Shown: positions 5,324 to 61,923, counted from the stretch's first letter. The stretch is 64,000 bases of DNA from an uncultured Candidatus Bathyarchaeia archaeon (GCA_964587735.1 CAZPMB010000002.1:1736-65735); one strand, 5' to 3'. Program-made: numbers and translations. The notes: generated from the sequence alone by a model not told the origin.

Positions 5324-6457
5324 TTGAATTCGAGGATAATCCGTGTGATAGGGACGGCTCTTCTTCCCCTTCACCACGGCCGCGCGCCCAGGTGGCTCTT
5401 CAGCAGGATGGTGAAGCTTGCGGAGTGCATCGTCGAGATCATCGTCCGCGAGCACGGGGTCAGAGGCCTCCTCGAGCGCCTCTCGGACCCATGGTTCTTC
5501 CAGTCCCTCAGCTGCGTCCTCGGCTACGACTGGCACTCCAGCGGAACCACCACGGTTACTTGCGGGGCCTTGAAGGAAGCAATCAATCCTGGGGAGATGG
5601 GCGTGGCTGTCGCCGGGGGTAAGGGCAGGGCCTCACGTAAAGCGCCGGCCGAGATAGAGGAGCAGGGCCTGGGCTTCGGACTAAGCACTGGCAGGATCCA
5701 GGAGCTCCAGTACGCGAGCAGGATGGCCGCGAAGGTGGACAACAACCTCGTCCAAGACGGCTACGACATCTACCACCACACATTCGTCTTCGACGAGGTG
5801 GGCCGGTGGATAGTCATACAGCAGGGTATCAACGAGGCAGAGGGAAACGCCAGGCGCTATCACTGGCCACCGGAGCACAGGGACTTCATCGAGGAGCCTC
5901 AAAACGCCATCCTCTGCGACAGCCGCATCCCGGCAGTACTAGACATGACCTCCGCCAAGAGCACCGACAGCCGCAGAGCCTGCGTGGACCTAGCCAGGGA
6001 GGACCCTCGGCTTCTGAGACGAATGCTGGTCGCCGCGAGGCCAATCCACCAGAGATCGCTGGGAGAGTGGATGACTGGGGGCAGCCACAACGAGGTTCTT
6101 ATAATGCCGAGGCGAATAAACTGGGAGGCGATGAAAGAGGTCTACGAGTTCCAGCCGCGGAGCTATGAGGAGCTGGTCTCCCTCCGGGGCGTGGGCTCCT
6201 CAACCATTCGCGGCCTTGCTCTGGTCGCTGAACTGGTATACGGGCAACCCCCCAGCTGGCGGGACCCGGTCCGCTTCAGCTTCGCTTTCGGGGGCAAGGA
6301 TGGCGTCCCCTTTTCCGTTGACAAAGGGGGGATGGACGGGGCAGTGGAACTTCTGAGGGCCGGCGTCGAGGAGACTAGATTGGGGCGCGAGGAAAAGCTC
6401 AGGGCCATACGGAGGCTGAGGGGCTGCGTGCCTCCAATCCCGGAGGACAGAGGCTGA
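5324..6457 (+). CDS. DUF763 family protein
   Basis: LPLHHGRAPRWLF ... DPWFFQS motifs characteristic of archaeal DUF763. TTG start. Confidence 0.5.
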   Translation: MNSRIIRVIGTALLPLHHGRAPRWLFSRMVKLAECIVEIIVREHGVRGLLERLSDPWFFQSLSCVLGYDWHSSGTTTVTCGALKEAINPGEMGVAVAGGKGRASRKAPAEIEEQGLGFGLSTGRIQELQYASRMAAKVDNNLVQDGYDIYHHTFVFDEVGRWIVIQQGINEAEGNARRYHWPPEHRDFIEEPQNAILCDSRIPAVLDMTSAKSTDSRRACVDLAREDPRLLRRMLVAARPIHQRSLGEWMTGGSHNEVLIMPRRINWEAMKEVYEFQPRSYEELVSLRGVGSSTIRGLALVAELVYGQPPSWRDPVRFSFAFGGKDGVPFSVDKGGMDGAVELLRAGVEETRLGREEKLRAIRRLRGCVPPIPEDRG

Positions 6458-7527
6458 TGTCCTCGGAGCTTAGCTTGAACGAGGCCATACAAAATGTTCC
6501 GATCACCCGAGATGCGGCTGAGGTCATACTATCGCTAAAAAAGATCCCATCCGGTCTTCTGGAATTGGCTGGGGCAGTACGGGACAGCCGCCTCGGCAGG
6601 GAACTCCGGTTCTACTACCCCCTCCCACGGTTCCCGAACGTCTCCGTGACGGGGGACAGGTGCTCGTTGAGGTGCAAGCACTGCGGCGGATACTATCTGC
6701 GGGGGATGACGAGCGTCGAGACTCCCTCCAAGTTGAAGAAGTTCTGCACCAAGCTGGAGGCGGATGGGGGAGTCGGCCTCCTAATCAGCGGAGGCTCCGA
6801 CAGGAAAGGGAGGGTCCCCCTCGACCGGTTCTACAACGCGTTTAGGTGGGTGAAGGAGAACACGGGCCTCATCGTCAACGTCCACACCGGGCTGCTGGAC
6901 CCTGGGCAGGCGGATGGGATCGCCTCGACTGGCATCGACATTGCGTCCGTTGACGTCGTGGGCAGCGACGAGACCATCAGGCGAGTCTACGGCCTGAAGG
7001 CTACGAAGGAGGACTACTCGGGAACCCTGGAATCGCTGAAGAATGCGGAAGTCCCCCACGTCATCCCTCACATATGTGTCGGCCTCGACTTCGGGGAGAT
7101 CGGGGGGGAGGTGGCTGCCTTGGAGATAGCCAAGAAGATAGACCCAGAGCTGGTCGTACTCCTAGAGCTTATGCCGACTCAGGGGACGGCGATGGAGGCT
7201 GTGAAGCCGCCCTCAGCCGAGGAAATGGCGATGGTCGTGGCTGCGGCGAGGCTGATGTGCCCTGGGGCCGGCATCGCCCTGGGCTGCATGCGCCCCAGAA
7301 CTGGCAAGGACAGGGTAGAAGAACTGGCGTTAGAGGCGGGGGTCGACAGGATCGTCCTTCCCTCAAGATCAACGGTCGAAAGGGCGGGGATTGCGGGTTT
7401 CAGCGTCAGGCATTTGGACGGATGCTGTGCGATTCCCAAGAGCCTCGAGGGCCGAGCGCTAAGGCTTGGTGGCTCCCAGGCTCATCTCCAGAACGTGAAT
7501 GAAGTCCCCGGGCGAGACGCCTATTAG
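6457..7527 (+). CDS. Radical SAM protein, candidate LipS1/LipS2-type lipoyl synthase component
   Basis: CSLRCKHCGG (Cx3Cx2C) radical SAM motif. Sits convergent to and overlapping the split lplA genes. Start overlaps the stop of the upstream DUF763 gene. Confidence 0.5.
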   Translation: MSSELSLNEAIQNVPITRDAAEVILSLKKIPSGLLELAGAVRDSRLGRELRFYYPLPRFPNVSVTGDRCSLRCKHCGGYYLRGMTSVETPSKLKKFCTKLEADGGVGLLISGGSDRKGRVPLDRFYNAFRWVKENTGLIVNVHTGLLDPGQADGIASTGIDIASVDVVGSDETIRRVYGLKATKEDYSGTLESLKNAEVPHVIPHICVGLDFGEIGGEVAALEIAKKIDPELVVLLELMPTQGTAMEAVKPPSAEEMAMVVAAARLMCPGAGIALGCMRPRTGKDRVEELALEAGVDRIVLPSRSTVERAGIAGFSVRHLDGCCAIPKSLEGRALRLGGSQAHLQNVNEVPGRDAY

Positions 7528-7746
7528 GTCTACTGAGCGGCTCCCGAAGAAGACCTTAACGGCTTTCTCCAGCGACCCCCTCTCGGCTGGGAGGCCTGCG
7601 AGGGCGCCCTCGAGCTCCTCTATCGACTCCTCAGGGTGCATGAAGAAGTCGCCTGTGATCTTGACCCTGGCCAGGCGGCCTCGCTCGACCCTCGTCTCCG
7701 CAACGATCAGCTTCCCACCGGGTACCTTGAACTCGAAACGCCCCAA
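7459..7746 (-). CDS. Lipoate-protein ligase C-terminal domain protein (LplB / Lpl-C)
   Basis: 95-aa protein immediately downstream of LplA-N, as in Thermoplasma-type split LplA. The KITGDFF motif is typical of the LplA C-terminal domain. Confidence 0.6.
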   Translation of the reverse strand: MGRFEFKVPGGKLIVAETRVERGRLARVKITGDFFMHPEESIEELEGALAGLPAERGSLEKAVKVFFGSRSVDLIGVSPGDFIHVLEMSLGATKP

Positions 7747-7750
7747 GGAC

Positions 7751-8524
7751 CTACCTCCTGAATATCCAATCGTGGGAGCGATACCTCTCCCTGAACTTCT
7801 CCATCAGCCCCTCCTCGTAGGGGGTGAGTTCCCCGGGCTCGAGGCGGACGTCGAGGGTCTCCTCGAAACCCGTTACGAGGGCCCTGCGCACCTCGTCGAA
7901 GGAGATGTCGCGCCCCAGCTCACGGCGGATGCTAGTCACCCTCTCCTCCGCTGCCTTGATCATCTTGTCGCTGATCTTCGTGTCTGAGACCTTTAGCACG
8001 GTGAAGATCTTCTTGACGTCACAGTCAACTAGGACCGTGCCGTGCTGCAGGACGGAGCCATAGCGGCGGGTCTGGGCGTTGCCCGAGATCTTCCTGCCCC
8101 CCGAGACTATATCGTTTATCGGCTTGAACTCGGCCTCCAGTCCAAGCGCCCTCAGCCCCCTGATCAAGCATCCGCATATCAGTCTGTAGGATGAGACGAT
8201 GTCCTTAGGAATCTTAGGGTCGTCGTCAGGGGCGATGAGGCTGTAGGTGATCTCCCCGTCGTAGTCGTGGAAGACGGCCCCCCCGCCAGTTATGCGGCGG
8301 ATCACGTCTACTCCGAGGCGGCGGCAGGACTCGAGGTCAACCTCGTCCCTCATGCTCTGGAAGTATCCCACAGACACCGCGGAGGGGTTCCACCTGTAAA
8401 ACCTGACGGTGTTGGGCGTCTCCCCCATCCTCCTAGCGTAGGCTATGGATTCGTCTATGCCCATCTGGGTATAGGCGTCCTCGACCCTCATATCGATCAA
8501 GCGCCATTTCTCACTCATTTTCAT
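7751..8524 (-). CDS. lplA: Lipoate-protein ligase A, catalytic N-terminal domain (Lpl-N)
   Basis: BPL/LPL catalytic domain: RRxTGGGAVFHD, YRWNP. 257 aa lacking the C-terminal domain, which is encoded separately downstream. Confidence 0.8.
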   Translation of the reverse strand: MKMSEKWRLIDMRVEDAYTQMGIDESIAYARRMGETPNTVRFYRWNPSAVSVGYFQSMRDEVDLESCRRLGVDVIRRITGGGAVFHDYDGEITYSLIAPDDDPKIPKDIVSSYRLICGCLIRGLRALGLEAEFKPINDIVSGGRKISGNAQTRRYGSVLQHGTVLVDCDVKKIFTVLKVSDTKISDKMIKAAEERVTSIRRELGRDISFDEVRRALVTGFEETLDVRLEPGELTPYEEGLMEKFRERYRSHDWIFRR

Positions 8525-9509
8525 TCAACCCTATCAGTGCGGCCTCCCTTTGCGCCTCCTCCAGGGTCAGGCCCCACGGGTAGTTGTAGAACGGACCCGA
8601 CGGTCGTTCGTTATAGTAGGGCCGATTGCAGCCCGGGCAGCCGCTGGTCCGGAAAGCCTCCCCCTCAATCAGGGCCATTCGAATGGTCTCTGCGTCCGCT
8701 CCTGGGTCCTTCAGCTTCCCACCCTCGTCGAACTCCATGTCCTCGAATCGGGTCAGCCCTTGCGTCACAAGGTACCTTGCGAGTTGGACGCGACGATAGG
8801 CCTCCAAGGGAGGCTGGGGGCGATCGACGAGGGTGGTGCCCGGCACGGGTGTGAAGGCGTATAAAGCAGTCCGGATCTTCATGTCCAACAACTGTTGAAT
8901 AAGCCTAACGGCCTCCTCCTCCGTCTCCCCTAGGCCGACGATGAGGTTGGAATAGACCTTTCCCTCGCCGAAAACCTCGACAGCGGTCCTTAACGCCTTC
9001 ATGTGCTCCTCCCAGCTGTAGGGCCCACCAGCGGACCTCCCCTTTACCTCGTCGAAGAGTTTCGGCGTCGCAGCATCCAGCGGTATGCTGATCCGATCAA
9101 GGCCGGCCTTCTTCAGCCTCTCCATGTTGCTCCTGCCCAATGGGGGAGTGTCGAGCGAGACCGGGAGCCCAGTTGCATCCCTGATCTCTCTCAGCAGCGC
9201 GAGTACGTCATCGATGAACCCGGGGTAGTTGATCGCTTGGATGCATACCCTTTCGATGATTTTCTCAGCGGGTCGCATAAGCCCGTGAATAAATTTCTCC
9301 GTGGGGAAGGCTGGCCAGATGACCCTCGACAAAAGGGACTTCTTCGAGATGCTCCCTCGGGCCTGGGGGCAGAACGCGCAGTTCGCCGTGCAACTGCCCT
9401 CCGTGTAGGTCATTGTGTAGGCGGTCGTGGGCTTCGCGTCGAGCCAGCACTCTGTAAGCCCCAGAACTGAGGCCGTGCCGATGCTGACCCTCAGCCATTT
9501 GGGAATCAA
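8511..9509 (-). CDS. Radical SAM protein, candidate LipS1/LipS2-type lipoyl synthase component
   Basis: CTANCAFCPQ (Cx3Cx2C). Overlaps the lplA-N start by 14 nt (same operon). Second radical SAM in the lipoylation cluster. Confidence 0.5.
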   Translation of the reverse strand: MIPKWLRVSIGTASVLGLTECWLDAKPTTAYTMTYTEGSCTANCAFCPQARGSISKKSLLSRVIWPAFPTEKFIHGLMRPAEKIIERVCIQAINYPGFIDDVLALLREIRDATGLPVSLDTPPLGRSNMERLKKAGLDRISIPLDAATPKLFDEVKGRSAGGPYSWEEHMKALRTAVEVFGEGKVYSNLIVGLGETEEEAVRLIQQLLDMKIRTALYAFTPVPGTTLVDRPQPPLEAYRRVQLARYLVTQGLTRFEDMEFDEGGKLKDPGADAETIRMALIEGEAFRTSGCPGCNRPYYNERPSGPFYNYPWGLTLEEAQREAALIGLNENE

Positions 9510-9669: not shown

Positions 9670-9984
9670 TTAACTCTTTATCCAAGTGTGGTGGCACTTT
9701 GCACAGGTGAAGCGTTCCACGGCCCTATCCTGTTTGACGCCGGCGTGCTCTCCCATGGTCGTTATCACCTTACGGTAGGCCTCGTTGTGCCCGCAATTTG
9801 GACACCTCTGCATCACCCTCAGAGACCCTTCGCCTGTGTTCTCGACGACGTAGACCGGCTCTGCAGTGGGCCTTTCCGACCTCCTAACCTCGATCACATC
9901 CTGGTGAACCTCTCTTCCGCATCTAGGGCATAAGAGGCCCTTTACCGTCCTCCGCATGTACGAGCCGCATACATCGCAGAACAT
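9670..9984 (-). CDS. TFS / RpoM (Rpb9)-like double zinc-ribbon protein
   Basis: N-terminal C-x2-C...C-x2-C ribbon (MFCDVCG...CPRCG) and C-terminal TFIIS-type ribbon (CPNCG...CAKC...W), 104 aa. The inter-cysteine loop lacks the canonical RSADE acidic hairpin. Confidence 0.5.
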   Translation of the reverse strand: MFCDVCGSYMRRTVKGLLCPRCGREVHQDVIEVRRSERPTAEPVYVVENTGEGSLRVMQRCPNCGHNEAYRKVITTMGEHAGVKQDRAVERFTCAKCHHTWIKS

Positions 9985-10116: not shown

Positions 10117-10395
10117 ATGACCGTAACGCGCACTCACCTGTATATCTCGGGTCGGGTCCAGGGTGTCAATTTCCGCTACTTTGTCAGGCAAGAGGCCCTG
10201 AGGCTCGGCCTTGCAGGGTGGGTGAGGAACCTCCCAGACGGCAGGGTCGAGGTCGTCGCCGAGGGGGAGGAGGAACAGGTGGAGAGGCTCATAGGATGGT
10301 GCCGAAGGGGGCCGCCACTCGCCATGGTAAGGGGTCTTGATATTCGAAGGGAGCCGACTACAGGAGACTTGAAGACATTCACGATCAGGCTCTGA
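10117..10395 (+). CDS. acyP: Acylphosphatase
   Basis: VQGVNFRYF and [17 protein letters not shown] motifs. 92 aa. Confidence 0.85.
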
Positions 10396-10457: not shown

Positions 10458-10688
10458 ATGGAATACAGGCGTCTCGAGGGAGACGAGGCGGTCGAGCTGA
10501 TCCTTCTGGTCCTTAGGGATGCGGGTAGGCCTATGACCACTAGGGAGATCCAAGCGGAGACGGAGAAGAGACTGGTCAGGTGCCCAGACTCGACCGTGGT
10601 CTTCCTGAACAGACTCAGGAACAAGGGAGTGATAAAGGGCGAGCGCTCCAAGGAGAAGCGAGGCTGGGTCTGGTGGGTGGAGGACTAA
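10458..10688 (+). CDS. Small winged-helix DNA-binding protein
   Basis: 76 aa with an HTH-like RPMTTREIQAETEKRL core. No family assignable. Confidence 0.35.
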   Translation: MEYRRLEGDEAVELILLVLRDAGRPMTTREIQAETEKRLVRCPDSTVVFLNRLRNKGVIKGERSKEKRGWVWWVED

Positions 10689-10981
10689 AACCAGGAAACG
10701 ATCTTATCGGCGGTCTCTATAAGACTGACCCATCTCTTGTAATCTATGGGCTCTACGCCTTCGGCCACCTTATCCCAAGAGCCCTCCGACCTGAAGTGAG
10801 GCTCTAGGTAGAATACTCCTTTGGCGTATCCGAGAGACCTGACAAGCCCGTGGTCTGTTGCGTGGCGGCAACCGTCGTATTCGAACACGAAAAGCAATCG
10901 GTCCTTCTTCGCAATCTCCTTGGCCACTTTGAAGGCGGTAGATCCTTCCTGCATCCGACCTATTAAGAAGAGGACGTTCAT
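10685..10981 (-). CDS. DsrH/TusB-like protein
   Basis: 98 aa. Third gene of a DsrE-DsrF-DsrH ordered triad. DsrE/F/H fold-sized, no active Cys motif. Confidence 0.4.
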   Translation of the reverse strand: MNVLFLIGRMQEGSTAFKVAKEIAKKDRLLFVFEYDGCRHATDHGLVRSLGYAKGVFYLEPHFRSEGSWDKVAEGVEPIDYKRWVSLIETADKIVSWF

Positions 10982-10992
10982 CTCATCATGCC

Positions 10993-11337
10993 TCAGAATG
11001 TGACTGTCGAACTACATTCTGCCATCATCTCGGCCAGCCCTCGAATGTCGATCGTTGTGATATTGAGGTCTGGGTCGAGATCCTCAATCCTCAGGCAATT
11101 TTCTTCAAGCGACTCCACGAGAACTTGTATCCCAGCTAGATCAGCCGAGGTGCGGAGGTAGTCCCTATTTGTGGAGTCCTGGAGGGCCCCAGGGAGCAGG
11201 CATTTGACTCCCTCGTCCAGGTGGACGATGCGTGGCGCTCTGTCCATCCCCAGCATTGCAGCGCAGAGCCGGAGGCCGTCGGCGACCCTCCGCACGTCCT
11301 CTGGTCCGCTCCTAATAATGACCATCACATCGACCAT
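10993..11337 (-). CDS. DsrF/TusC-like protein
   Basis: 114 aa, DsrE/DsrF family size and hydrophobic core pattern (MVDVMVIIRSGP...). Middle gene of the triad. Confidence 0.45.
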   Translation of the reverse strand: MVDVMVIIRSGPEDVRRVADGLRLCAAMLGMDRAPRIVHLDEGVKCLLPGALQDSTNRDYLRTSADLAGIQVLVESLEENCLRIEDLDPDLNITTIDIRGLAEMMAECSSTVTF

Positions 11338-11346
11338 CCACGTTCA

Positions 11347-11688
11347 CTACCCCAGAAAGATCGTCTTTTCGCTCCCCTCGATGAGCTCAACCAGTTCGGC
11401 GAGGCTGCTCAGCCCCGCACCTCTCACCAGATCCCTCAGGTACTCCAGCCCTCTCATAGCGGCGCTTGTCCTGCATACGAGAAGCCGCACCCCCCCTGGC
11501 GTGAGGCGCTCGATATCCTTGTTGGCCCTTCCCGACCTTACGAGCTGAACAGAATCCCCGTCAAGGAAAACAGTGACGTCGTGCCCCCTTTCCCTGGCGG
11601 CGCTGGAGAGGCCTATGATCGTCTCCTTTACCACCTTCAAATCCGAATGTGCGACGAGCAGCAGGTGCATTGGTGCTTTCTCCTTCAC
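11347..11688 (-). CDS. DsrE/TusD-like sulfurtransferase
   Basis: 113 aa, LLLVAHSD N-terminus and conserved Cys in VCRTSAAMRG, consistent with the DsrE/TusD active-site cysteine. First gene of the triad. Confidence 0.5.
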   Translation of the reverse strand: MKEKAPMHLLLVAHSDLKVVKETIIGLSSAARERGHDVTVFLDGDSVQLVRSGRANKDIERLTPGGVRLLVCRTSAAMRGLEYLRDLVRGAGLSSLAELVELIEGSEKTIFLG

Positions 11689-14253: not shown

Positions 14254-14360
14254 AAGGTGCTAATCTCCGGAATAACTGTCATCATTATTTACATCTATTT
14301 TGAGCAAACCTCGATAATTATTTCGCATCTTATTTACACTGAATTTTGCCTGGGGTATCC

Positions 14361-14368
14361 TTTAAAAA
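14361..14368 (+). promoter_or_regulatory. Candidate TATA box (TTTAAAAA) for the hypCD operon. Spacing predicts a leaderless or near-leaderless hypC mRNA
   Basis: TTTAAAAA centred about 26 nt upstream of the hypC ATG at 14391. Confidence 0.35.
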
Positions 14369-14390
14369 TTGCCATGTGAATTCAAAGGGG

Positions 14391-14618
14391 ATGTGCCTCG
14401 CGATACCAGGAAAGGTCCTGAAGATAGACGGCAGGACTGCGAGGGTCGACTTCGGATACGGTGCTACTCGTGAGGTGGACATCACTCTCGTCGATGTGAG
14501 AGTCGGCCAGTACGTGCTGGTCCACACGGGCTACGCAATCCAAGTGCTGGACGAGGAGGACGCCCTGGAGACCCTCCGGCTCTGGAAGGAGATGCTGGAG
14601 TACACGGAGCCGGCGTAG
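14391..14618 (+). CDS. hypC: [NiFe]-hydrogenase maturation factor HypC
   Basis: Begins MCLAIPGKV (invariant Cys2). 75 aa. The track ORF starts at an upstream in-frame TTG, but the HypC family starts at MC. Confidence 0.85.
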   Translation: MCLAIPGKVLKIDGRTARVDFGYGATREVDITLVDVRVGQYVLVHTGYAIQVLDEEDALETLRLWKEMLEYTEPA

Positions 14619-14641
14619 AACTTATTTTGGGGTGAGGACGC

Positions 14642-15718
14642 ATGAAAGAGTTCTCGGGTTTCAAGGACCGGAACGTAGCCGAGCTGCTGCGAGTGAGGAT
14701 CGGTGAGCTCGCCTCCCCTGAGAAGGTGAAGATCTGCCACGTCTGCGGAACCCACGAGTGGACGATTACCCACTCGGGGCTGAGGGACCTCCTTCCGGAT
14801 AATGTCTCCCTAATAGCAGGGCCAGGGTGCCCGGTGTGCATCGTCCCAGCCCGCGAGATCGACGAGGCCGTCTGGCTGGCTCAAAACGGGTTAACAGTTG
14901 CGACCTTCGGCGACATGTTCCGCGCACCCGGGTCCGATCTTTCCCTCAGCAACGCCTGCGGGCGGGGTGCAAAGGTGAGGGTGGTCTACAGCGTAAGAGA
15001 TGCCGTAGCGATGGCAAGGAGAGAGCCGGGAAGGGAGTTTGTCTTCTTCGCGATAGGCTTCGAGACCACCACCCCGATGAACGCCGTCGAGATCCCAGGT
15101 TGCCCAGAGAACTTGAGCTTCCTGACGAGCCACAGGCTGATACCGCCGGCGATGGAGTTCCTCGCCGAGATGCCCGGCCTGAACATAGACGGCTTTATCG
15201 CCCCGGGGCACGTCTCCACGATCATCGGCGAGAGGCCCTACAGGATGTTCCCGGAAAAATACGGGATGCCCACGGTCATCGCCGGATTCGAGCCGCTGGA
15301 CGTGCTCATGGCCGTCTACATGCTCCTCAAACAGATACGGGAAGGCAGACCAAGGCTTGAGAACGAGTACTCCAGGGTCGTGACGTACGGGGGGAACATC
15401 AAGGCGCAGAAGGCGATGTCAGACGTGTTCGACATTTCCGACGGCGCATGGAGGGGAATTGGTGCGATCCCCTCCTCGAGCCTGAAGCTGAAAGAGGAGT
15501 TCTCTCGAAAGGACGCGAGGAAGAGATACGAGATAGATGTTGGCCCGGGCAGGGACATAATTCCGGGCTGCAGCTGCCACCTCGTCATCGTCGGGAAGAT
15601 CGAGCCGGACAAGTGCCCCCTGTTCATGAAAGCTTGCACTCCCGAGAGGCCGAAGGGGGCCTGCATGGTCAGCAGCGAGGGGACCTGCAGGATCTGGGCG
15701 TACGAAGAAGGGTCATAG
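14642..15718 (+). CDS. hypD: [NiFe]-hydrogenase maturation factor HypD
   Basis: CHVCGTHEW, GPGCPVC, FAIGFETTTP and C-terminal CxH/Cys cluster motifs. Confidence 0.9.
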   Translation: MKEFSGFKDRNVAELLRVRIGELASPEKVKICHVCGTHEWTITHSGLRDLLPDNVSLIAGPGCPVCIVPAREIDEAVWLAQNGLTVATFGDMFRAPGSDLSLSNACGRGAKVRVVYSVRDAVAMARREPGREFVFFAIGFETTTPMNAVEIPGCPENLSFLTSHRLIPPAMEFLAEMPGLNIDGFIAPGHVSTIIGERPYRMFPEKYGMPTVIAGFEPLDVLMAVYMLLKQIREGRPRLENEYSRVVTYGGNIKAQKAMSDVFDISDGAWRGIGAIPSSSLKLKEEFSRKDARKRYEIDVGPGRDIIPGCSCHLVIVGKIEPDKCPLFMKACTPERPKGACMVSSEGTCRIWAYEEGS

Positions 15719-18049
15719 ATCCTTCAGGGACGCCACAACGGCCTGACCGAGGGAGGTCCCGCCATCCCCCGGAGGGACCTGCCTGTGACGGATGAACCTT
15801 AGGCCCATACCCTCCACCCTCTTCCTGATCACACTGTTCAGCATCTCGTTGTAGGCAACGCCACCAGAGAAGCCGACCGTCCCCAGACCGTACTTCTCTG
15901 CGGCTGAAATCGCCATTTTAGACAAGCCCTCGGCGACTGCCAAATGCAGGGCGCTAGCTAGTACTCCTTCATCATGCCTTTCCCTGAGCTCAAACAGCCT
16001 CCTGAACATCTGGGATGTCTTCAGAACCAACACGCCCTTCTCATCAATCACCTCGACGGGGAGATCGACTCCATTTGATGATGCAGCCGCTACTGCCTCG
16101 AGCTTCATTGCGCCCTCCCCCTCGTAAGTCCTCCCATAAGAGACGCCAAGGAGGCAGGCTGCGGCATCTAGGATCCTGCCCACGCTAGTGGTCATTGGGG
16201 TGTTGAGCCCCTTGTCGAGCTGGGCGAAGACGGCGTCGATCTCCCTCTCGCCATGCTTGTAGCCCTCTAGGCAGCTCTGCGAGAGGAACTCCCTCAGCTC
16301 ATCCCTTGGCAGCTCGCTATACAGGATACCCTGAAGCATCCTACCGTACCTGATGGCACTGAGGTCCCCGCCCGGCATGGGCTGAGGTTCTAGATGCCCA
16401 GCTCGCCTAAAGCCCCTGTAACCACCGACCAGAATCTCGCCGCCCCATGCGGAGCCGTCGCTCCCATAACCGTACCCGTCGCACATCGCGCCAACGATCT
16501 CCTTCCCCGGCTCGAGGCCGTTCTCCGCCATGACCGCGGCGAGGTGGGCGTGGTGGTGCTGGACCTCGACAAGGGGGACACCGTGCTCCTCCGCGATCTC
16601 GGCGGCCACCGTCCTTGAAAGGAAGTTTGGGTGGAGATCGCAGGCCACGGCGTCCGGCTTCTCAAGCCTCAGGAGCTTCGTCATGTGGTCGATGGCCTCC
16701 CTCAGGAAGGCAAGGGCCCCAGGGCTCTCGACGTCGCCCAGGTGCTGGGTCGGGTAGCACTTGTCCTCCTTGAGGACGCATGCAGTGGATGCGAGCTCGG
16801 GGCCCACAGCCACGACATTCCTTATCGAGGTAAATGGGAGGTGCACGGGAAGGGGGACGTAGCCCCTGGACCTTCTGAGGAATAATGGGTTCCCGTCGAC
16901 CACCCTGATGACGGAGTCGTCGCACCTCGCGCATATCTCGCGGTCGTGGAGGAGGAGGTAGTCGGCAATGTCTCCCAGCCTCTCGAACGCCTCGCGGTTC
17001 GAGACCGCCATGGGCTCTCCAGGGAAATTCGCGGAGGTCATGACCAGCGCCGGCTCCTCGCTGTAGCGGAATAAAACGTGGTGCATCCCCGAGTAGGGCA
17101 GCATAGCCCCGACCGTGTTGAGATCGGGGGAGATGTAAGGAGAGAGCGGGAAGGGCTCCAGCTTTCTGAGAGCCACTATCGGCCTCGCTAGGGAGGTGAG
17201 GAGCCCTCTCTCACGCCCGGAGATCAGGGCGTATTCCTCGATCTCCTTCAGGCTCGGGCTCATGATGGCGAAGGGCTTACCGGGCTTCCTCCTCCTTTCC
17301 CTGAGCAAAATAAGGGCATCGTCCTCCGTTGTCTTCGTCGCTAGGTGTATGCCGCCTATGCCCTTGATGGCCAGCACGCTGCCCTCGTACAGCAGGCCCG
17401 CGGCCACTCTTAGGGGAGCATCGTCATCGACTACCGACCCGTCAGGGGCGTAAAGAGTCATCCTCGGCCCGCACTGGGGACAGCAGATCGTCTGGGCATT
17501 GAACCGCCTGTCCGGGGGGCCGTGGAATTCTTCGCTGCAGTCCCCGCAGAGGGGGAACTCGGCCATCGTCGTCCTCTCCCTGTCGTAGGGGATGTCTGTT
17601 ATCGTCGTGAACCTTGGGCCACAGATGGCGCAGCACGTGAAGGGGTAGAGGTAGTGCCTGTCACCGGGGTCGAGGAGCTCCCTGAGGCAGTCGTCGCAGA
17701 TGGCCGCGTCCGACGGGATGAGGGAGTGCTTCACCTCAATCCTCCCCATGTCGCTGTCGTCGATGGAGAAGACGGGGTACTCGCCGCTGTAATCCAGCCA
17801 TTCGACGTCGATCCTGGTATAGACGGCGACCGGGATCCTCTCATCCTCCAAGCCCCTCAGGAAATCCCTGATGGCGTCTTCCTCGCCGTTAACATCGATC
17901 CTAACCCCAGCGTCCCCCATGTTCTTAACGTAGCCCCTCAGTCCCCTTTTCACAGCCAGCCTGTAGACAAAGGGTCTGAAGCCTATGCCCTGTACGAGGC
18001 CCTGGACGGTGACGATGGCTCTCCTCTTCAAGATCTCAGCCCGTTCCAC
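15713..18049 (-). CDS. hypF: Carbamoyltransferase HypF
   Basis: 778 aa with N-terminal acylphosphatase domain (VQGIGFRPF), two CxxC zinc-finger pairs, YrdC-like and Kae1-like domains. Confidence 0.9.
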   Translation of the reverse strand: MERAEILKRRAIVTVQGLVQGIGFRPFVYRLAVKRGLRGYVKNMGDAGVRIDVNGEEDAIRDFLRGLEDERIPVAVYTRIDVEWLDYSGEYPVFSIDDSDMGRIEVKHSLIPSDAAICDDCLRELLDPGDRHYLYPFTCCAICGPRFTTITDIPYDRERTTMAEFPLCGDCSEEFHGPPDRRFNAQTICCPQCGPRMTLYAPDGSVVDDDAPLRVAAGLLYEGSVLAIKGIGGIHLATKTTEDDALILLRERRRKPGKPFAIMSPSLKEIEEYALISGRERGLLTSLARPIVALRKLEPFPLSPYISPDLNTVGAMLPYSGMHHVLFRYSEEPALVMTSANFPGEPMAVSNREAFERLGDIADYLLLHDREICARCDDSVIRVVDGNPLFLRRSRGYVPLPVHLPFTSIRNVVAVGPELASTACVLKEDKCYPTQHLGDVESPGALAFLREAIDHMTKLLRLEKPDAVACDLHPNFLSRTVAAEIAEEHGVPLVEVQHHHAHLAAVMAENGLEPGKEIVGAMCDGYGYGSDGSAWGGEILVGGYRGFRRAGHLEPQPMPGGDLSAIRYGRMLQGILYSELPRDELREFLSQSCLEGYKHGEREIDAVFAQLDKGLNTPMTTSVGRILDAAACLLGVSYGRTYEGEGAMKLEAVAAASSNGVDLPVEVIDEKGVLVLKTSQMFRRLFELRERHDEGVLASALHLAVAEGLSKMAISAAEKYGLGTVGFSGGVAYNEMLNSVIRKRVEGMGLRFIRHRQVPPGDGGTSLGQAVVASLKDL

Positions 18050-18106
18050 ATTCGGTCGTTAGACGTTCTTTTTTACCCGTTGAAGGGTGTCTTTAAAACG
18101 ATTCCC

Positions 18107-19120
18107 TCAGCAGATTCGGGGCATGGGGGATCCGACGGGTTCCCTTACTATCCTCCTCCCGCCTATGAAGGTCTCAAGTATGACCCTGCCCCTGCCCTCA
18201 TGGACCTCGCCAACTATTTTGGCGTATTTCCCATAGCGGTTTCTCCGCACGACCCTCAGGACATCCTCGGCCTTCTCGTCTTCAACGCCTATGATCGCTA
18301 TTCCCTCATTGGCGAGCTCCAGTGGGTCGAGGCCCAGGAGGTCGCAGGCACTCCTCACGACGCCCTTCACGGGAATCTCCCGCTCAAGGAGGTGGACTTC
18401 GACGCCTGACTTCCTCGCCATGTCGTTGAGGGCCCCGGAGACTCCACCTCGAGTGGGGTCCTTCATGGCTGTGATTCCGCCGACCCTCATCCCCTCGCAG
18501 AGCATCCCCGACAGGGGCGCCGCGTCGGACTCGATGGGCGCGTCGAGCTCCAGGCCCTCACGGGATACGAGGAGGGAGAGCTGGTGGTTCCCGATGGTCC
18601 CGGTTAGGATAATCTTGTTCCCTGGTTTAAGGCCGGAATCGGTCACTACCATGTCAGCGAGGCCAACGCCTGAGGCATTGATCATGAGCTCGGTGACACC
18701 GCCGTGCTCGACGACCTTTGTGTCGCCTGCGATGAGGGGGACTCCGATCTCCTCAAGGGATCCCCCCATGGACTTTACCACCCTCCTCAGCAGATCTATG
18801 TGGAGCCCCTCCTCGACGATGATCGAAGACATCATGGCGACGGGGGTTGCCCCCATGACGGCCAGGTCGTTCGCGGTCCCGCAGACCGCGAGCCTCCCTA
18901 TGTCGCCTCCCGGGAAGAAGAGTGGCCTCACCGTGTACGCGTCCGTGGTGACGACGATGTGGCGCCCGCACAGCGGGATCGTGGCGCCGTCATCCATCTC
19001 GGGTAGGCCGATCCCGCCCTCGACCCTGTTCAGCCGGTAGGCGGGGAGGATAACCTCCTCGATGAGCTGCCTCATGAGCCTCCCACCGCCGCCGTGCTCC
19101 ATCCTCACGACCTCGGTCAT
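18107..19120 (-). CDS. hypE: Hydrogenase maturation factor HypE
   Basis: PurM-like fold and C-terminal PRIC motif (carbamoyl/cyano-accepting Cys). Confidence 0.9.
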   Translation of the reverse strand: MTEVVRMEHGGGGRLMRQLIEEVILPAYRLNRVEGGIGLPEMDDGATIPLCGRHIVVTTDAYTVRPLFFPGGDIGRLAVCGTANDLAVMGATPVAMMSSIIVEEGLHIDLLRRVVKSMGGSLEEIGVPLIAGDTKVVEHGGVTELMINASGVGLADMVVTDSGLKPGNKIILTGTIGNHQLSLLVSREGLELDAPIESDAAPLSGMLCEGMRVGGITAMKDPTRGGVSGALNDMARKSGVEVHLLEREIPVKGVVRSACDLLGLDPLELANEGIAIIGVEDEKAEDVLRVVRRNRYGKYAKIVGEVHEGRGRVILETFIGGRRIVREPVGSPMPRIC

Positions 19121-53523: not shown

Positions 53524-54483
53524 TTGAATTTAAGCATCGTAATCCCTGCACTCAACGAGGAGGCCATGATAGAGCAGTGCCTGTCAAGCATACGACGCCA
53601 AGACCAGCCCGTTGAGATCATTCTTGTAGATAACGGCAGTGTAGACCGAACCCCCGAGATCGCTAAGAAATACTGCGACATGATCCTCATCGAGCCTGGC
53701 TACAGCCTCGCGGAGATGAGGGACCAGGGTGCCAGAGAAGCCAAGGGCGATATCGTTGTCACAACAGACGCTGACTGTGTGGCCCCGCCCCATTGGATAA
53801 GTGAGCTAACCAAACCCTTCTACGACCCCGGGGTGGTAGCCGTAGGCGGAGCCTTAAGGCCCTTAAAGAGGAGTCTGCTCGGTGGGTTCTACTGCTGGAT
53901 CTCCGCCGTGGTCCAGGGATTGTTTGGCCTCTACCAGGGAGCAAACATGGCGTATAGGCGCGATGTCTACCTCAGGTCCCCAGGCTATGCGGGGGCGAAG
54001 CGGGCGGAAGACTGGAACCTTAGCTGGAACCTCCGCAGGTATGGGAAGACTAAGTTCATCAGAAAGGCATACACGTACACGGAGATCCCGTTCAACAGGC
54101 AGATAGAGTACGTTGGGGTCATCGCCAGCGGCATACTCATCATCCTAGGAGGCGTCTTGGGCTGGGTTAACCTGTTGGGCTTTGGCCTTGGGTACATTCT
54201 GAGCGAGGCGGCCACATTTATCTACAAGCACAGGAGCATCCTCAGGCGCAGCCAAGTGACCCTCATCGCTCTGGCCCTAGTCTTCATCTTCCAGAGGACC
54301 CTCACGGTTGTCAACTACACATTCATCGCAGGATTACTTGGAGGCATCTTCGCTTATCACTTCATCTCGGAGGATATCAGGCTGGTTATTGAGGACTTGA
54401 AGCTCTACAATCTCAGGAAGAGGCCTGACCATAGCTTCCTAAGCGTTATTAAGCAACACATCAGCCGTGTCATTAGGCTGTAG
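53524..54483 (+). CDS. Family-2 glycosyltransferase with C-terminal transmembrane segments
   Basis: SIVIPALNEE, VDNGSVDRT and TTDADC (DxD) GT2-A motifs. Hydrophobic C-terminal third. Confidence 0.75.
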   Translation: MNLSIVIPALNEEAMIEQCLSSIRRQDQPVEIILVDNGSVDRTPEIAKKYCDMILIEPGYSLAEMRDQGAREAKGDIVVTTDADCVAPPHWISELTKPFYDPGVVAVGGALRPLKRSLLGGFYCWISAVVQGLFGLYQGANMAYRRDVYLRSPGYAGAKRAEDWNLSWNLRRYGKTKFIRKAYTYTEIPFNRQIEYVGVIASGILIILGGVLGWVNLLGFGLGYILSEAATFIYKHRSILRRSQVTLIALALVFIFQRTLTVVNYTFIAGLLGGIFAYHFISEDIRLVIEDLKLYNLRKRPDHSFLSVIKQHISRVIRL

Positions 54484-54817
54484 TCAGGTTGAATGTGCTT
54501 CATAGATTAGGAAGTATCGTTTAAGGCTCACGGAAACCCTTAAATCGGATCAAGCCACTCCGCCACATTAACGATCACAGAGGAAGCCATTATACCTAGA
54601 AAAGCGGCCGCATAATGGCTGTCCGTTTTCAAGTTACATTACCTGCTCTTGTGTACACAATTTAACACATTATCACACGCCGCAGCGACAGCCGGTGTAC
54701 AATATCCATACAAAGTTGAGGGGTGCAACCCACTTTCTGAATTGGGATTTGAGAAATAGCCTTTCTTATCCTACGAAACCAATGCCGAGTTGTTCAGGTT
54801 GTTAAGGAGATTCATGC

Positions 54818-55585
54818 TTATCCTTTTAACCCCTTAATTTTCAGCATCGAAACCCCCTTTTCACATGAGGCATAGCACGATAGACACCTTATGCAATCCG
54901 GTGAGTTGAAGTCCAATGATTCCATCGAACAGCTAGCAGTACAGGAATTACATTCTCCGCATGCTTCATGTGGTCGCTCAAGGGAGAAAAGGCTAAACCT
55001 ATTCGAAGCGGAAAAAATTGTGCTCATTGGGCAGATGTACCGACACCATGGCCTATGGAAGAAGACTGATGAGACGAGAGTAATCGCCGTTGTTAAGATC
55101 GAAAGTAAGACTAATTTTTCTCTATAGGTCATCAAAAGCGACCAGAGGCCCTTGACCGGCATGAGCCCGAACAGAACCAGCACCGCCTCAGAGATCAGGT
55201 AAAGAAACAAGATTAACGTGCCGTACTTCAACAAGATTAGTCTTCTGAAAACACTCTTCGGCTTAATTTTCCTTATAGGAACCCTATGTAGAAAGTCACT
55301 GAGAACCCCCGCAGGGCATAGCAATCCGCAGAAAATCCTGCCGAATAGGAGGCTTGAGACTAGGATTATGCCGAACAACCAGGGTCGGATGATGCTGAAG
55401 GTACACGGAGCCGGACAGATATGGCAGAGGATGAAGGGTACATTGAAGGGGCATCCGAAAAGGCCACCAGTTACGCTTGAGCCGATGTGCCCGAGAGCAC
55501 CCATGGGCCCCAAGTACAGAAGCGAGGCGCTTTTAACTAGGAGCAGAATACCTTTAAACCTCACCCTAATATAAGAGAGCCCCAC
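54818..55585 (-). CDS. NapH/MauN-like membrane-bound 4Fe-4S polyferredoxin
   Basis: TM helices plus CxxCxxC...CP motifs (CGECNSCTASC, CIRCLSCYASC) and RIFCGLLCP, typical of the COG0348 family. Confidence 0.6.
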   Translation of the reverse strand: MGLSYIRVRFKGILLLVKSASLLYLGPMGALGHIGSSVTGGLFGCPFNVPFILCHICPAPCTFSIIRPWLFGIILVSSLLFGRIFCGLLCPAGVLSDFLHRVPIRKIKPKSVFRRLILLKYGTLILFLYLISEAVLVLFGLMPVKGLWSLLMTYREKLVLLSILTTAITLVSSVFFHRPWCRYICPMSTIFSASNRFSLFSLERPHEACGECNSCTASCSMESLDFNSPDCIRCLSCYASCEKGVSMLKIKGLKG

Positions 55586-55591
55586 CGTGCC

Positions 55592-56263
55592 TCACCAGCC
55601 CTGCACAGAAATTGCGATTTGAGACGCTATCTGCCTAACGCCTAAGAAGATGAGCATGACGCCGCAGGACCTCCTGAAGAACTTGTAAATCCTCGGTGTC
55701 TTGAAGATCAGAGAGGGTGCCCCCCCTGCGACCACTCCGAGCAAGATTACTGGCGACACGATCGATGCCCCTAGGCCGAAACAAAGGGTGTGGAAGGCCC
55801 CGGCTAGGGGCGTTCTGACGTTTAAGGCTATATAGGTGAGGACCCCGATGAGGGGGGCGCAAGGGGTCACACCCACAACGAACCCTAGGAATACAAGGCT
55901 CAACAAACCGCCATCGATGTTTAGTTTTAGCGCCCTGTGAAATGCTACCCTCGGCTCAAAGCCAAACAGGATGAGAAACCCGAGAAAAGAGATAAAGAGC
56001 CCGCCGACGACCCATGCATATAGACAGAAGCTCGTATGGTCTAAGAAATCTATCATAATCATTCCTGAACAGCCAGCAACCAGACCAAGCATGGTGTATG
56101 CCAACAGCCTCGATAGTGAGAACGCCATGGTTGCCTTGAGGCCTTCCATCCAACCATTGGAGGTCCCCGCGATATAGGGAATGATTATCGGTACACAGAA
56201 GAGAAGGCACGGGCCGAAACCCAATGTCAAACCTGTCAAGAACAGCTCTATGGGGACTTCCAT
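55592..56263 (-). CDS. ccdA: CcdA/DsbD-family thiol-disulfide transporter (cytochrome c biogenesis-type)
   Basis: GLTLGFGPCLL first-Cys motif and GVTPCAPLIG second-Cys motif in a 6-TM scaffold. Confidence 0.75.
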   Translation of the reverse strand: MEVPIELFLTGLTLGFGPCLLFCVPIIIPYIAGTSNGWMEGLKATMAFSLSRLLAYTMLGLVAGCSGMIMIDFLDHTSFCLYAWVVGGLFISFLGFLILFGFEPRVAFHRALKLNIDGGLLSLVFLGFVVGVTPCAPLIGVLTYIALNVRTPLAGAFHTLCFGLGASIVSPVILLGVVAGGAPSLIFKTPRIYKFFRRSCGVMLIFLGVRQIASQIAISVQGW

Positions 56264-56419
56264 CTCCGTTGAGTTCTGGAGCCATTCCGGTTAAAAGGAG
56301 TTCCCTCAAAGCCATCGAAGTGGTTCATCAACCAAGTGAATTTTTGCCGAAGCTAAAAATACTGGTGCCCCTCTTTCAATTAATCGAATAGATTTCTAGC
56401 CGACTGAGGCGGGTTTACT

Positions 56420-57598
56420 GTGGAAGAGGTTGAGGGGCGAAGGTCTAGGCTCAGGACAGGATTGGAAGTAACCGCCCTAATCCTTTTCGTGGTCATAGGC
56501 GTGGTAATAATTTTCCCGGAGATTTTTTCAGCCATCTTGAAACCATCCACAGAAGGCCTCAGGGAGGCAATGTATTACACAAAAATCGAGGGGAATGCGG
56601 TCCAGTGCCAGCTCTGTTTTAGGAGATGCGTTATAGGGGAAGGGCAGAGAGGCTTCTGCACCAACAGGAGGAACGTAGGAGGCAGGCTATACACGGTGAT
56701 ATATGGTAAGCCGTGTGCATTACAGATCGACCCTGTAGAGAAGGAGCCTCTCTTCCACGTCTACCCCAGAAGCAGTATATTCTGCATAGGAACAGCTGGA
56801 TGCAACTTCAGATGTAGCTTCTGTCAGAACTGGCACATGGCCCATAAGAGCCTGGAGGAGGTGGAGTACGCACAGTACTCGCCCGAGGAACTCGTCGATT
56901 TGGCCTTCGAATATAACTGTACTGGCTTCCACTTCACCTACAACGAGCCCACCGTCTTCTACGAGTACATGTTCGATATCGCTGAGATCGCCAAGAAGAA
57001 GGGCCTTGTGGTGGCTTTTCACAGCAATGGCGCCATTAACGAGGAGCCCCTGAGGGAGCTCCTGAGGTTCATGGACGCGGTCACCATCGATCTGAAGTCC
57101 TTCAAACCCGAGTATTACGAATACGTGACAGAGCAATCCACCTCCGGTCCCTTCCAGCCCTCCTCTCCACCTCTCGATACAGTCCTATCCACAATGAAGA
57201 CGATCAAGGAGGTGGGAGTTTGGTTGGAGATAGTTAACCTCATGATACCTACCCTGAACGACGACATGGAAGACGTAAAAGAGATGTGCACCTGGATAAG
57301 AGAGAACCTCGGCGACGACGTGCCTCTCCACTTCCTCAGGTTTATGCCGGCGTGCAAGCTGACGAAGCTCCCATACACCCCTGTCCAGACCCTCGAGGCT
57401 GCGAGGAGGACGGCCATGGCTGCAGGGATGAAATACGTATACATAGGTAATGTCCCAGGCCATGAAGGCAACAGCATGTTCTGCCCTAGCTGCGGGGAGT
57501 GTCTCATCGCCAGATACCATTTCTTGGTTCTCAGCTACAACTTAGATGGAGACAAGTGCAAGTTCTGTGGCTACGAGATACCGGGCCTCTGGAGATAA
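56420..57598 (+). CDS. AmmeMemoRadiSam-system-type radical SAM enzyme (PFL-activase-like). N-terminal 50 aa (GTG start, TM-like) may not be translated
   Basis: CQLCFRRCVIGEGQRGFCTNR plus CNFRCSFCQNW motifs. Alternative ATG at 56570 (MYYTKIEG) gives the typical 342-aa length. Confidence 0.7.
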   Translation: MEEVEGRRSRLRTGLEVTALILFVVIGVVIIFPEIFSAILKPSTEGLREAMYYTKIEGNAVQCQLCFRRCVIGEGQRGFCTNRRNVGGRLYTVIYGKPCALQIDPVEKEPLFHVYPRSSIFCIGTAGCNFRCSFCQNWHMAHKSLEEVEYAQYSPEELVDLAFEYNCTGFHFTYNEPTVFYEYMFDIAEIAKKKGLVVAFHSNGAINEEPLRELLRFMDAVTIDLKSFKPEYYEYVTEQSTSGPFQPSSPPLDTVLSTMKTIKEVGVWLEIVNLMIPTLNDDMEDVKEMCTWIRENLGDDVPLHFLRFMPACKLTKLPYTPVQTLEAARRTAMAAGMKYVYIGNVPGHEGNSMFCPSCGECLIARYHFLVLSYNLDGDKCKFCGYEIPGLWR

Positions 57599-57619
57599 CG
57601 GAAGCCTGAATCGAAGCCA

Positions 57620-59905: not shown

Positions 59906-60279
59906 TTGTCGGCCCTACCATACAGCGTTATCATTTCTTCAATCCTTGCGAGTCGAACTTTGCGTCTCTGTAACTGAAGAGCATCAAGAACTGTGTTCAT
60001 TCCCACTTGCGATCTATATTACAAGTGTTGCGTATGTATATTTCGCGACTTCATTGGTTGTTACCTTATGGGTTAAATATCATGATTCGTCTAACGGGGT
60101 AAAGAACGGGGGCTAAGGTGCGAGCTCTGACCTCTCCGCTCCCTGTGGGATCACTTATTGCTCGATTCTTTGCCCTCGTGTGGGCGATTGCGTAAACGTC
60201 GTGATCTAAATGGACGAACTCTCTTTGGAGCTGCATGCTATGATCCTAACGGTGCACTACCCGTTATGAGTTATAGCTC

Positions 60280-60471
60280 TCACCTAAATCCGCTAGGTAA
60301 CTCCCCTTTCTTGTCCTCTTCCTTTTCAGCCAAGACTATCTCATCGCTGATATTAAAGAAAAGAGCAAGCTCAACCCATCCATTTCTTTTAACGTAGAGT
60401 TTCCTCTTGATGTCCGCAACATCCATTTTAAGAACGAGGAATTTTTCCTTAAGGTTGTTGAAGGCCTTCAT
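60280..60471 (-). CDS. Hypothetical small protein in the low-GC island
   Basis: 63-aa ORF in an AT-rich region. No family recognisable. Coding status uncertain. Confidence 0.2.
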   Translation of the reverse strand: MKAFNNLKEKFLVLKMDVADIKRKLYVKRNGWVELALFFNISDEIVLAEKEEDKKGELPSGFR

Positions 60472-60768
60472 TCTCCGCTATCTCCTCGTCGGTTACGATA
60501 GGGAAGGCTATATCAGAGGTAGGTACGGGAATAATCTATCTCTTCCTCAAGTTTAACCCTCTAATAACTTATACTCGTGTTCAAGGATGTCCCCCTTCGT
60601 TCGCAAGCATGAACTCGTGTAAATCGCCATTACATAACATTCTCGTTTGTAATTCGAAGAGAACCCCACGCGCTGCACTATGTTCGGCTGGATTGAACAT
60701 CTCCTTGATAATGAGGATGAAGTAAGGTATATCTGCCTCCGTGTAGATTTTATTTTTGGTGAAAGATT

Positions 60769-61125
60769 ATGCCTGAGGCATACCACTACGTCAGGTTCAG
60801 ATGGTGGAACAGGCTGGAACTCGATAAGGTGTCGAATGAACTTACCCCAAATTATGAAGTTAAAATGCTGGCGAGGCCGGGAGAGGAGCACGAGATAGCC
60901 TTACTGAAGGACGAGAGGAGCGAGCTTGTGGTCAAGTCCGACACGATAATGGCGCATCTATCGCCCATCAGGGCCGTCATGTCGCAGAAGAAGCCCATGC
61001 CACTCACGCCAAAGGACTTGGAGCTGAGGAAGAAGGTACTCGAGCTTTACCCAAGGGACAGGCCGACACCTTTCCCATGGGAGTTCAGCACCGAGCCCAA
61101 ATTCGAAGTCGCAAAGAAAAAGTGA
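60769..61125 (+). CDS. Hypothetical protein
   Basis: 118-aa ORF with protein-like composition. No recognisable motifs. Confidence 0.35.
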   Translation: MPEAYHYVRFRWWNRLELDKVSNELTPNYEVKMLARPGEEHEIALLKDERSELVVKSDTIMAHLSPIRAVMSQKKPMPLTPKDLELRKKVLELYPRDRPTPFPWEFSTEPKFEVAKKK

Positions 61126-61344
61126 TGAAGAACCCTTTTTCTGCTTTCTAATATTTTAATTTTATTACTATTGGTATCAAGTTAGCCATTATCATCTTTC
61201 ACTTGTATGAAACGATTCTTGGAATACCCATCTCAAAAAGAATTCAATTGGATTCAGCGCATTTTTTACACTTTCTAAAAGCTTCGGTTCCGATACCCAC
61301 GGATCTATTTTCGCAGACGAATGAGAAATTGAGAGGTAACTGTT

Positions 61345-61875: not shown

Positions 61876-61923
61876 GCCACTCAGCCACCATTTTATGGGA
61901 ATCTATTGATTTAATAGAAGACT

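Follow-up and report, generated by a model that had tools for sequence, protein, structure and literature searches.

The question raised by this locus is how lipoate is assembled in an uncultured Candidatus Bathyarchaeia archaeon and, more specifically, whether two radical S-adenosylmethionine (SAM) proteins encoded on either side of a split lipoate-protein ligase constitute a two-component lipoyl synthase of the LipS1/LipS2 type. The window, meaning the whole stretch of DNA that was analysed, is 64,000 nt long (GCA_964587735.1, CAZPMB010000002.1:1736-65735), and the genes in question lie at positions 5,324 to 9,509. On the strength of family and gene order comparisons, this region is very probably a standard archaeal LplAB-LipS1/LipS2 lipoate assembly cluster. 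The cluster is a routine member of a described system, and Bathyarchaeia are already catalogued for LipS1/LipS2. Its value is mainly one of annotation: lipoate in this Bathyarchaeia lineage would be made by the LplAB-LipS1/S2 route and not by LipA.

The initial annotation had described two distinct radical SAM proteins, one with the motif CSLRCKHCGG and the other with CTANCAFCPQ, bracketing lplA and a 95-aa lplB. These open reading frames (ORFs) are indeed present, as follows.

6457..7527, plus strand: lipS1, 356 aa, with CSLRCKHCGG; putative radical SAM sulfur insertion, C6 step
7459..7746, minus strand: lplB, 95 aa, small accessory subunit of a bipartite lipoate-protein ligase
7751..8524, minus strand: lplA, 257 aa, catalytic (large) subunit of the bipartite lipoate-protein ligase
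8511..9509, minus strand: lipS2, 332 aa, with CTANCAFCPQ; putative radical SAM sulfur insertion, C8 step

Identity of the lipoate assembly cluster

The proposal that the two radical SAM proteins are a LipS1/LipS2-type pair was followed up with hidden Markov models (HMMs), and each protein passes the cut-off of the predicted NCBIfam family. LipS1 scores 265.6 bits on the equivalog NF053742 (cut-off 230), with model positions 1-268 of 268 matched to residues 53-324, and LipS2 scores 338.1 bits on the equivalog NF053743 (cut-off 270), with model positions 1-292 of 292 covered. The cross-scores of LipS1 on the LipS2 model and vice versa are ~16 bits. Family membership is also directly supported by E values far beyond what chance would give, at 5e-79 for LipS1, 5e-101 for LipS2, 9e-56 for the ligase domain LplA-B_cat and 2e-123 for the DUF763 protein encoded directly upstream of lipS1.

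Cluster ligands were surveyed in 60 LipS1 and 39 LipS2 sequences from fetched loci of Bathyarchaeia, Thermoplasmatota, Asgard archaea, Hadarchaeota, Chloroflexota and Bacillota, and the ligand residues are directly visible in the window proteins. The CX3CX2C motif of LipS1 (C69/C73/C76) is invariant (60/60), as are the auxiliary-cluster candidates H205, C277, C323 and C324 (60/60). Likewise, the CX3CX2C motif of LipS2 (C40/C44/C47) and the auxiliary candidates C89 and C291-x2-C294 are each invariant in 39/39. The characterised counterpart is the two-component lipoyl synthase LipS1/LipS2 (TK2109/TK2248) of Thermococcus kodakarensis (Jin et al. 2020; Neti et al. 2022, PMC9585515). Mutagenesis assigned C27/C31/C34 of T. 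kodakarensis LipS1 to the radical SAM cluster and C230, C276, C277 and probably H159 to the auxiliary cluster; the residues of LipS2 are C39/C43/C46 and C85, C276, C279 and probably H178, respectively (PMC9585515). Relative to this numbering, the LipS1 ligands of the window show a near-constant offset of +42 to +47, with the auxiliary ligands at +46/47, and the LipS2 cysteines of the window likewise correspond to those of T. kodakarensis at a near-constant offset.

The ligase subunits are equally recognizable. The lplA product matches Pfam LplA-B_cat with 189 bits, has LplA of Thermoplasma acidophilum as its best PDB match (2ARS/3R07_A, 4e-39) and conserves the catalytic lysine motif, GGRKISGNA being aligned with GEKKIMGAA. 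LplB scores 77.7 bits on NF053749 (cut-off 65) and matches Pfam Lip_prot_lig_C (E=1.7e-7), with subunit 2 of T. acidophilum LplA as its best PDB match (3R07_C, 2.8e-7). Thus, the T. acidophilum LplA/LplB ligase (2ARS, 3R07) is the best structural match for both subunits and has the same catalytic/accessory split and lysine motif; the difference is that the ligase genes of the window are located between lipS2 and lipS1, a position that implies octanoate use followed by sulfur insertion. The start of lplA is either the ATG at 8524 or the ATG at 8518 chosen by the gene callers, giving an overlap with the end of lipS2 of 14 or 8 nt, and the lipS2 stop falls within the lplA start region (ATGAAAATGAGTGA). 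At the next junction 4 nt separate the end of lplA (...AGGAGGTAG) from the TTG at which lplB starts, with AGGAGG forming the last lplA codons just upstream of that start.

From the characterised homologues we infer a scheme that covers what each enzyme does, which sulfur is inserted first, the acceptor and co-transcription. The genes lipS2, lplA and lplB would form a tightly coupled minus-strand operon with lipS2 first, while lipS1, on the plus strand and convergent with lplB, would be translationally coupled to the upstream DUF763 gene. LplA and LplB together would use ATP to activate octanoate in its free form, or lipoate that has been scavenged, and would transfer it onto the lipoyl-lysine of an apo-protein. 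The radical SAM [4Fe-4S] cluster of LipS2 would then take a hydrogen at C8, and a sulfur from the enzyme's own auxiliary [4Fe-4S] cluster would be added to give 8-mercaptooctanoyl-lysine; LipS1 would complete the lipoyl group by the same chemistry at C6. Overall, this resembles LipA, where two sulfurs are inserted by radical SAM chemistry at C6 and C8 of protein-bound octanoate at the cost of a sacrificial auxiliary [4Fe-4S] cluster. In LipA both insertions fall to one and the same protein, C6 first. LipS1 and LipS2, in contrast, perform one insertion each with C8 first, and the T. kodakarensis study gives octanoyl as the substrate of LipS2 and 8-mercaptooctanoyl as that of LipS1 (PMC9585515).

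Compared with TK2109/TK2248, the window proteins belong to the same families by equivalog HMM, have CX3CX2C in both proteins and share the auxiliary pattern of Cys...CysCys plus His in LipS1 and Cys...CysXXCys in LipS2. The T. kodakarensis lipS genes are presumably unlinked, judging from their distant locus numbers, whereas those of the window flank lplA/lplB. Additionally, LipS1 of Bathyarchaeia has ~45 extra N-terminal residues, and the window lineage carries a 20-residue C-terminal tail besides. The sLpl(AB)-LipS1/S2 pathway of Hyphomicrobium denitrificans and Thioalkalivibrio (PMC10332631) is similar in combining a ligase with LipS1 and LipS2 and in proceeding from octanoate ligation to the addition of two sulfurs. 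In these sulfur oxidisers, however, the ligase is a fused Lpl(AB), whereas that of the window is split into LplA and LplB. Their clusters often contain lipT, lipX and lipY and are located beside shdr-lbpA; none of these genes was seen adjacent to the window cluster, and no LbpA or sHdr is linked to it.

Gene order was read directly from the loci. The layout in which lipS1 converges on lplB, lplA and lipS2 is found in ~15 Bathyarchaeia loci, with locus L009 being co-directional instead. The order lipS2-lplA-lplB-lipS1 has been called "typical for Archaea" (Tanabe et al. 2023, PMC10332631). According to the same study, combinations of Lpl with LipS1/S2 occur in 17 % of archaeal genomes, co-occurrence of LipA is rare in LipS1/S2-encoding archaea, and the supplementary tables already give LipS1 and LipS2 in Bathyarchaeia genomes (PMC10332631). 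The closest named relatives of the window proteins are from Bathyarchaeota/Bathyarchaeia metagenome-assembled genomes; the best GTDB species representatives have LipS1 proteins that are 68-76 % identical, and the exact window proteins were found only on short metagenome contigs, with runs ERR12264622, ERR12264623, SRR8539650 and SRR9661762 among their sources. The initial remark that a classical LipA is absent holds for the 64-kb window, in which no LipA-like protein was found with the LipA HMM or by the CX4CX5C motif. This motif has matches in HdrA-like proteins only, and on LipA TIGR00510 (cut-off 310) LipS2 reaches 24.3 bits and LipS1 has no match. The other three radical SAM ORFs of the window are PA0069-like, NrdG and AmmeMemoRadiSam.

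Several points weigh against this assignment. The lplA product scores 230 bits on LplA_large (NF053750), below the 'exception' cut-off of 480. This shortfall limits the automatic name only and the domain assignment stands, the model being narrow and still the top NCBIfam match. The suggested correspondence of ligands with TK2109/TK2248 is drawn from the numbering offset and family invariance, not from direct alignment. In LipS2, H178 of T. kodakarensis, proposed there as fourth ligand of the auxiliary cluster, is without an invariant counterpart: the only histidines of the window protein are H75 and H169, and the H169 column is His in 18/39 of the family sample. The Bathyarchaeia enzymes are known from sequence, and their activities are putative. 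Finally, neither the window nor any Bathyarchaeia locus, searched up to 10 kb from the cluster, yielded a lipoyl acceptor (GcvH, LbpA or E2). The query for this search was GcvH of E. coli; as a positive control, it did match GcvH in ~30 loci of bacteria and, in a Hadarchaeota locus, immediately downstream of lplA-lipS1-lipS2.

Substrate, acceptor and heterodisulfide reductase genes

Two alternatives concern what the pair acts upon. The radical SAM proteins could be BioB-like enzymes, or enzymes of a BioB/PylB/HydE megacluster, that act on a non-lipoyl substrate and neighbour the ligase by chance. No solved LipS1 or LipS2 structure is among the PDB matches, where only BioB and PylB appear at ~1e-4 (nearest solved structures BioB, 8e-5, and PylB, 1e-4). 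Apart from Radical_SAM, Pfam finds a weak BATS domain in LipS1, and LipS proteins were formerly annotated as biotin synthases (PMC9585515). These similarities would suit a biotin synthase relative, yet both proteins miss the cut-off of 225 of the BioB equivalog TIGR00433 (LipS1 41.6 bits, LipS2 56 bits) while passing the LipS1 and LipS2 equivalogs. The family-specific auxiliary cysteines are also present (the CC pair of LipS1 and CxxC of LipS2), and linkage to lplA/lplB is kept across archaea and bacteria. Membership of a biotin-synthase-like group with an unrelated substrate is thus extremely unlikely. The second alternative keeps the lipoyl chemistry and has the cluster mature LbpA for an sHdr system of sulfur oxidation, such as that of Hyphomicrobium or Metallosphaera, with the Hdr and DsrE-like genes of the window being part of that system. 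The initial annotation had likened the arrangement to archaeal and sHdr-associated clusters; the archaeal half of this comparison stands and the sHdr half does not. LipS1/S2 were first discovered beside shdr-lbpA clusters (PMC10332631), and the window does contain four HdrB/HdrC pairs, several HdrA-like genes and, ~1.2 kb from lipS2, three weak DsrE/F/H-like ORFs. However, no LbpA/GcvH-like ORF was found in the 64 kb with the positive-controlled query, and the Hdr genes lie >11 kb from the cluster with unrelated genes between. These Hdr genes belong to the HdrA2/HdrABC-Mvh type, the HdrA being large and HdrA2-like with ferredoxin and MvhD domains and located beside genes for MvhD, MvhG and MvhA of a [NiFe] hydrogenase, and only 8 % of LipS1/S2-containing archaea have sHdr (PMC10332631). 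The sHdr/LbpA linkage was rejected on the missing acceptor and, on the Hdr side, on architecture; maturation of LbpA by this cluster has very little probability.

Lipoate assembly by LplAB-LipS1/S2 for an acceptor encoded outside the window is the preferred reading. Because a glycine cleavage system has been reported for some Bathyarchaeia orders (PMC10321748), the acceptor would most likely be GcvH of that system. If lipoate is made by the LplAB-LipS1/S2 route, one or more lipoylated enzymes should be encoded at another site of the genome; the glycine cleavage system is the probable candidate, and this probable link bears on the reductive glycine pathway proposed for some Bathyarchaeia.

The Hdr and Dsr-like genes deserve description in their own right. 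The segment 20498..38967 is densely packed with Hdr genes. HdrC and HdrB are encoded there as four pairs, and HdrA is represented by an HdrA2-like protein of 776 aa to which an MvhD domain is fused, by a protein of 1000 aa that combines two HdrA-like modules, and by HdrA-like proteins of 566 aa and 440 aa. A separate MvhD (FlpD) and [NiFe]-hydrogenase MvhG/MvhA-like proteins are also encoded there, an architecture of the methanogen-type electron-bifurcation kind. At 10685..11688 on the minus strand, ~1.2 kb upstream of lipS2, three consecutive small ORFs have weak DsrH/TusB-, DsrF- and DsrE-like matches and resemble a TusBCD/DsrEFH-type sulfur relay. The trio has the same layout on same-species contigs (L001 and L002) and was not detected near lipS genes in the other Bathyarchaeia loci.

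Convergent overlap of lipS1 and lplB

The 3′ ends of lipS1 and lplB run into each other on opposite strands, where the following segments can be distinguished.

6457..7464, plus strand: conserved core of lipS1, through ...RALR, residue 336
7465..7524, plus strand: lineage-specific read-through tail of lipS1, codons 337-356
7525-7527, plus strand: lipS1 stop TAG, sequence read directly
7459..7527, both strands: convergent 3′ overlap of lipS1 and lplB, 69 nt, antisense, with shared codon boundaries ((7459-6457) mod 3 = 0)

The overlap extends from the lplB stop (CTA on the plus strand, 7459-7461) to the lipS1 stop TAG (7525-7527). It had initially been flagged as an unusually long coding overlap; the 69 nt at 7459..7527 are real, whereas the length is no more than expected once the stop has been lost. 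Because the antisense frames share codon boundaries, a lipS1 stop is possible only at an lplB TTA, CTA or TCA codon. Together these three codons make up 1.55 % of the 12,093 codons of the family-supported window genes, and the probability of a read-through of at least 22 codons, calculated from window codon usage, is 0.71. For comparison, the stretch that stays open in antisense at the 3′ end of a gene has a median of 30 codons over 28 genes.

In 12 convergent Bathyarchaeia loci, overlap length was determined by following lipS1 from its conserved GCC motif as far as the first true stop. Eleven of the 12 have a lipS1/lplB overlap of 6-18 nt, and one has a gap of 110 nt. When the window LipS1 is aligned with 22 relatives, its conserved C-terminus HLDGCCAIPxxLExRALR proves to be intact and in frame, and in the 12 convergent loci the stop follows 1-5 residues past this motif. 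The window LipS1 and an 86 %-identical relative run on past ALR with LGGSQAHLQNVNEVPGRDAY, so the window ORF is 16-20 residues longer than most relatives. At locus L005, in-frame stops (RR*DL*AHL*) are present where the window lipS1 stays open. The comparison thus shows the origin of the 69-nt overlap: it is the passive by-product of the loss of an ancestral lipS1 stop in this sublineage. In the AlphaFold2 (AF2) model of LipS1 the mean predicted local distance difference test (pLDDT) score is 91.5 and residues 339-356 fall below 50, and the 20-residue tail is predicted to be disordered and is probably functionless.

Stop loss has to be set against two other accounts of the same DNA. A sequencing or assembly frameshift, with the true end of the protein elsewhere, was a concern raised by the initial annotation and would fit an ORF that continues 16-20 residues beyond most relatives. 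The check does not bear this out, since the C-terminal motif keeps its frame as far as ALR and loss of the stop accounts for the 20 additional residues. No indel is required, relatives having a stop where the window has a sense codon. Furthermore, the identical 356-aa LipS1 (P0001) is found on independent metagenome contigs, and the 86 %-identical relative, which comes from a different sample (L085), has the identical 69-nt overlap, length and tail; therefore the overlap is not an assembly error, and a frameshift is scarcely credible. The other account makes the overlap or tail functional, through antisense coupling of lipS1 and lplB expression or through a LipS1-LplB or LipS1-LipS2 contact. 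In line with this, the overlap DNA is 96 % identical between two lineages with LipS1 proteins that are 86 % identical, and short convergent overlaps of 6-18 nt are kept in 11/12 relatives. However, lplB coding constraint on the same bases accounts for the conservation (of three differences, a tiny sample, two are synonymous in lplB and only one in lipS1), the tail is missing in all relatives below ~86 % identity, and it is predicted to be disordered and of a length that matches chance, all of which makes a function for it very unlikely. Passive stop loss is retained as the explanation. In GC-rich genomes a single stop loss may passively yield long convergent overlaps, which are then neither a frameshift nor a regulatory signal.

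DUF763 and other neighbouring genes

On its 5′ side, lipS1 adjoins a gene for a protein of the DUF763 family.

5324..6457, plus strand: DUF763 gene, directly upstream of lipS1; Pfam DUF763 412 bits; start at 5345 according to gene callers

As initially stated, this gene abuts the cluster with a 1-nt start/stop overlap. The junction, read directly, is TGATG with GGAGG just before it, and DUF763 and lipS1 are probably co-transcribed. The function of DUF763 is elusive: comparison with PDB sequences gave no match, the AF2 model has a mean pLDDT of only 58, every match of a Foldseek search against the PDB has E>1, and a literature search gave one incidental mention of the family. At least 120 homologues were found, and among the matches listed, DUF763 identity within Bathyarchaeia is 60-92 %.

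Could DUF763 be a lineage-specific accessory of LplAB-LipS1/S2, serving for example in octanoate supply or in the repair of sacrificed auxiliary Fe-S clusters? The TGATG junction with lipS1 is also present at two other loci (L086 and L087), and DUF763 adjoins lplB/lplA in Bathyarchaeia relatives (DUF763 67-92 % identical) even where lipS1/S2 are not there. Two such loci, L088 (5001..6372) and L089 (5001..7683), have kept a BhcC-like gene divergent from DUF763, followed by lplB facing DUF763, with lipS1 and lipS2 missing at the site; L088 keeps an orphan lplB only and L089 lplB-lplA only, and no lipS1 remnants were found in either by tblastn. These same loci, however, also speak against an accessory role, as DUF763 converges on lplB where lipS1 is missing and is therefore not co-transcribed with the ligase, and as synteny extends to the upstream BhcC-like gene, a sign of inherited order. 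Moreover, no DUF763 is present within 10 kb of lipS1 in ~60 loci outside Bathyarchaeia, in some of the surveyed Bathyarchaeia loci DUF763 lies on the opposite strand at a distance of 7-9 kb or is missing, and sequence, structure and literature give no functional hint. An accessory role appears distinctly unlikely, and the adjacency fits better with a gene order inherited within one class than with a functional link. Upstream of DUF763, the segment 2028..5207 encodes a YgeY-like M20 hydrolase (377 bits, cut-off 321), a QueG/reductive-dehalogenase-like Fe-S protein and a BhcC-like/D-serine-dehydratase-like pyridoxal phosphate enzyme; the M20 hydrolase and BhcC-like genes are syntenic with DUF763 in L087-L089.

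Several further features of the window are unconnected with the above. Transfer RNA and Rfam scans of the window gave no match. Between lipS2 and an acylphosphatase-like ORF (10117..10395, plus strand), an ORF at 9670..9984 on the minus strand encodes a 104-aa double zinc-ribbon protein that is transcription factor S (TFS)-like (36 bits, TFS cut-off 64.75) and may be a TFS paralogue. Probable hydrogenase maturation genes, recognized by N-terminal sequences and lengths only, occupy 14346..19120: HypC-like at 14346..14618, HypD-like at 14642..15718, HypF-like at 15713..18049 (minus strand) and HypE-like at 18107..19120 (minus strand). The segment 41939..49913 encodes pyruvate phosphate dikinase (1296 bits) and the anaerobic ribonucleotide reductase NrdD with its NrdG activase, which fits an anaerobic lifestyle. 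Lastly, 54001..62000 has a G+C content of 0.48-0.51, compared with ~0.58 in the remaining window, and may be foreign or differently constrained DNA.

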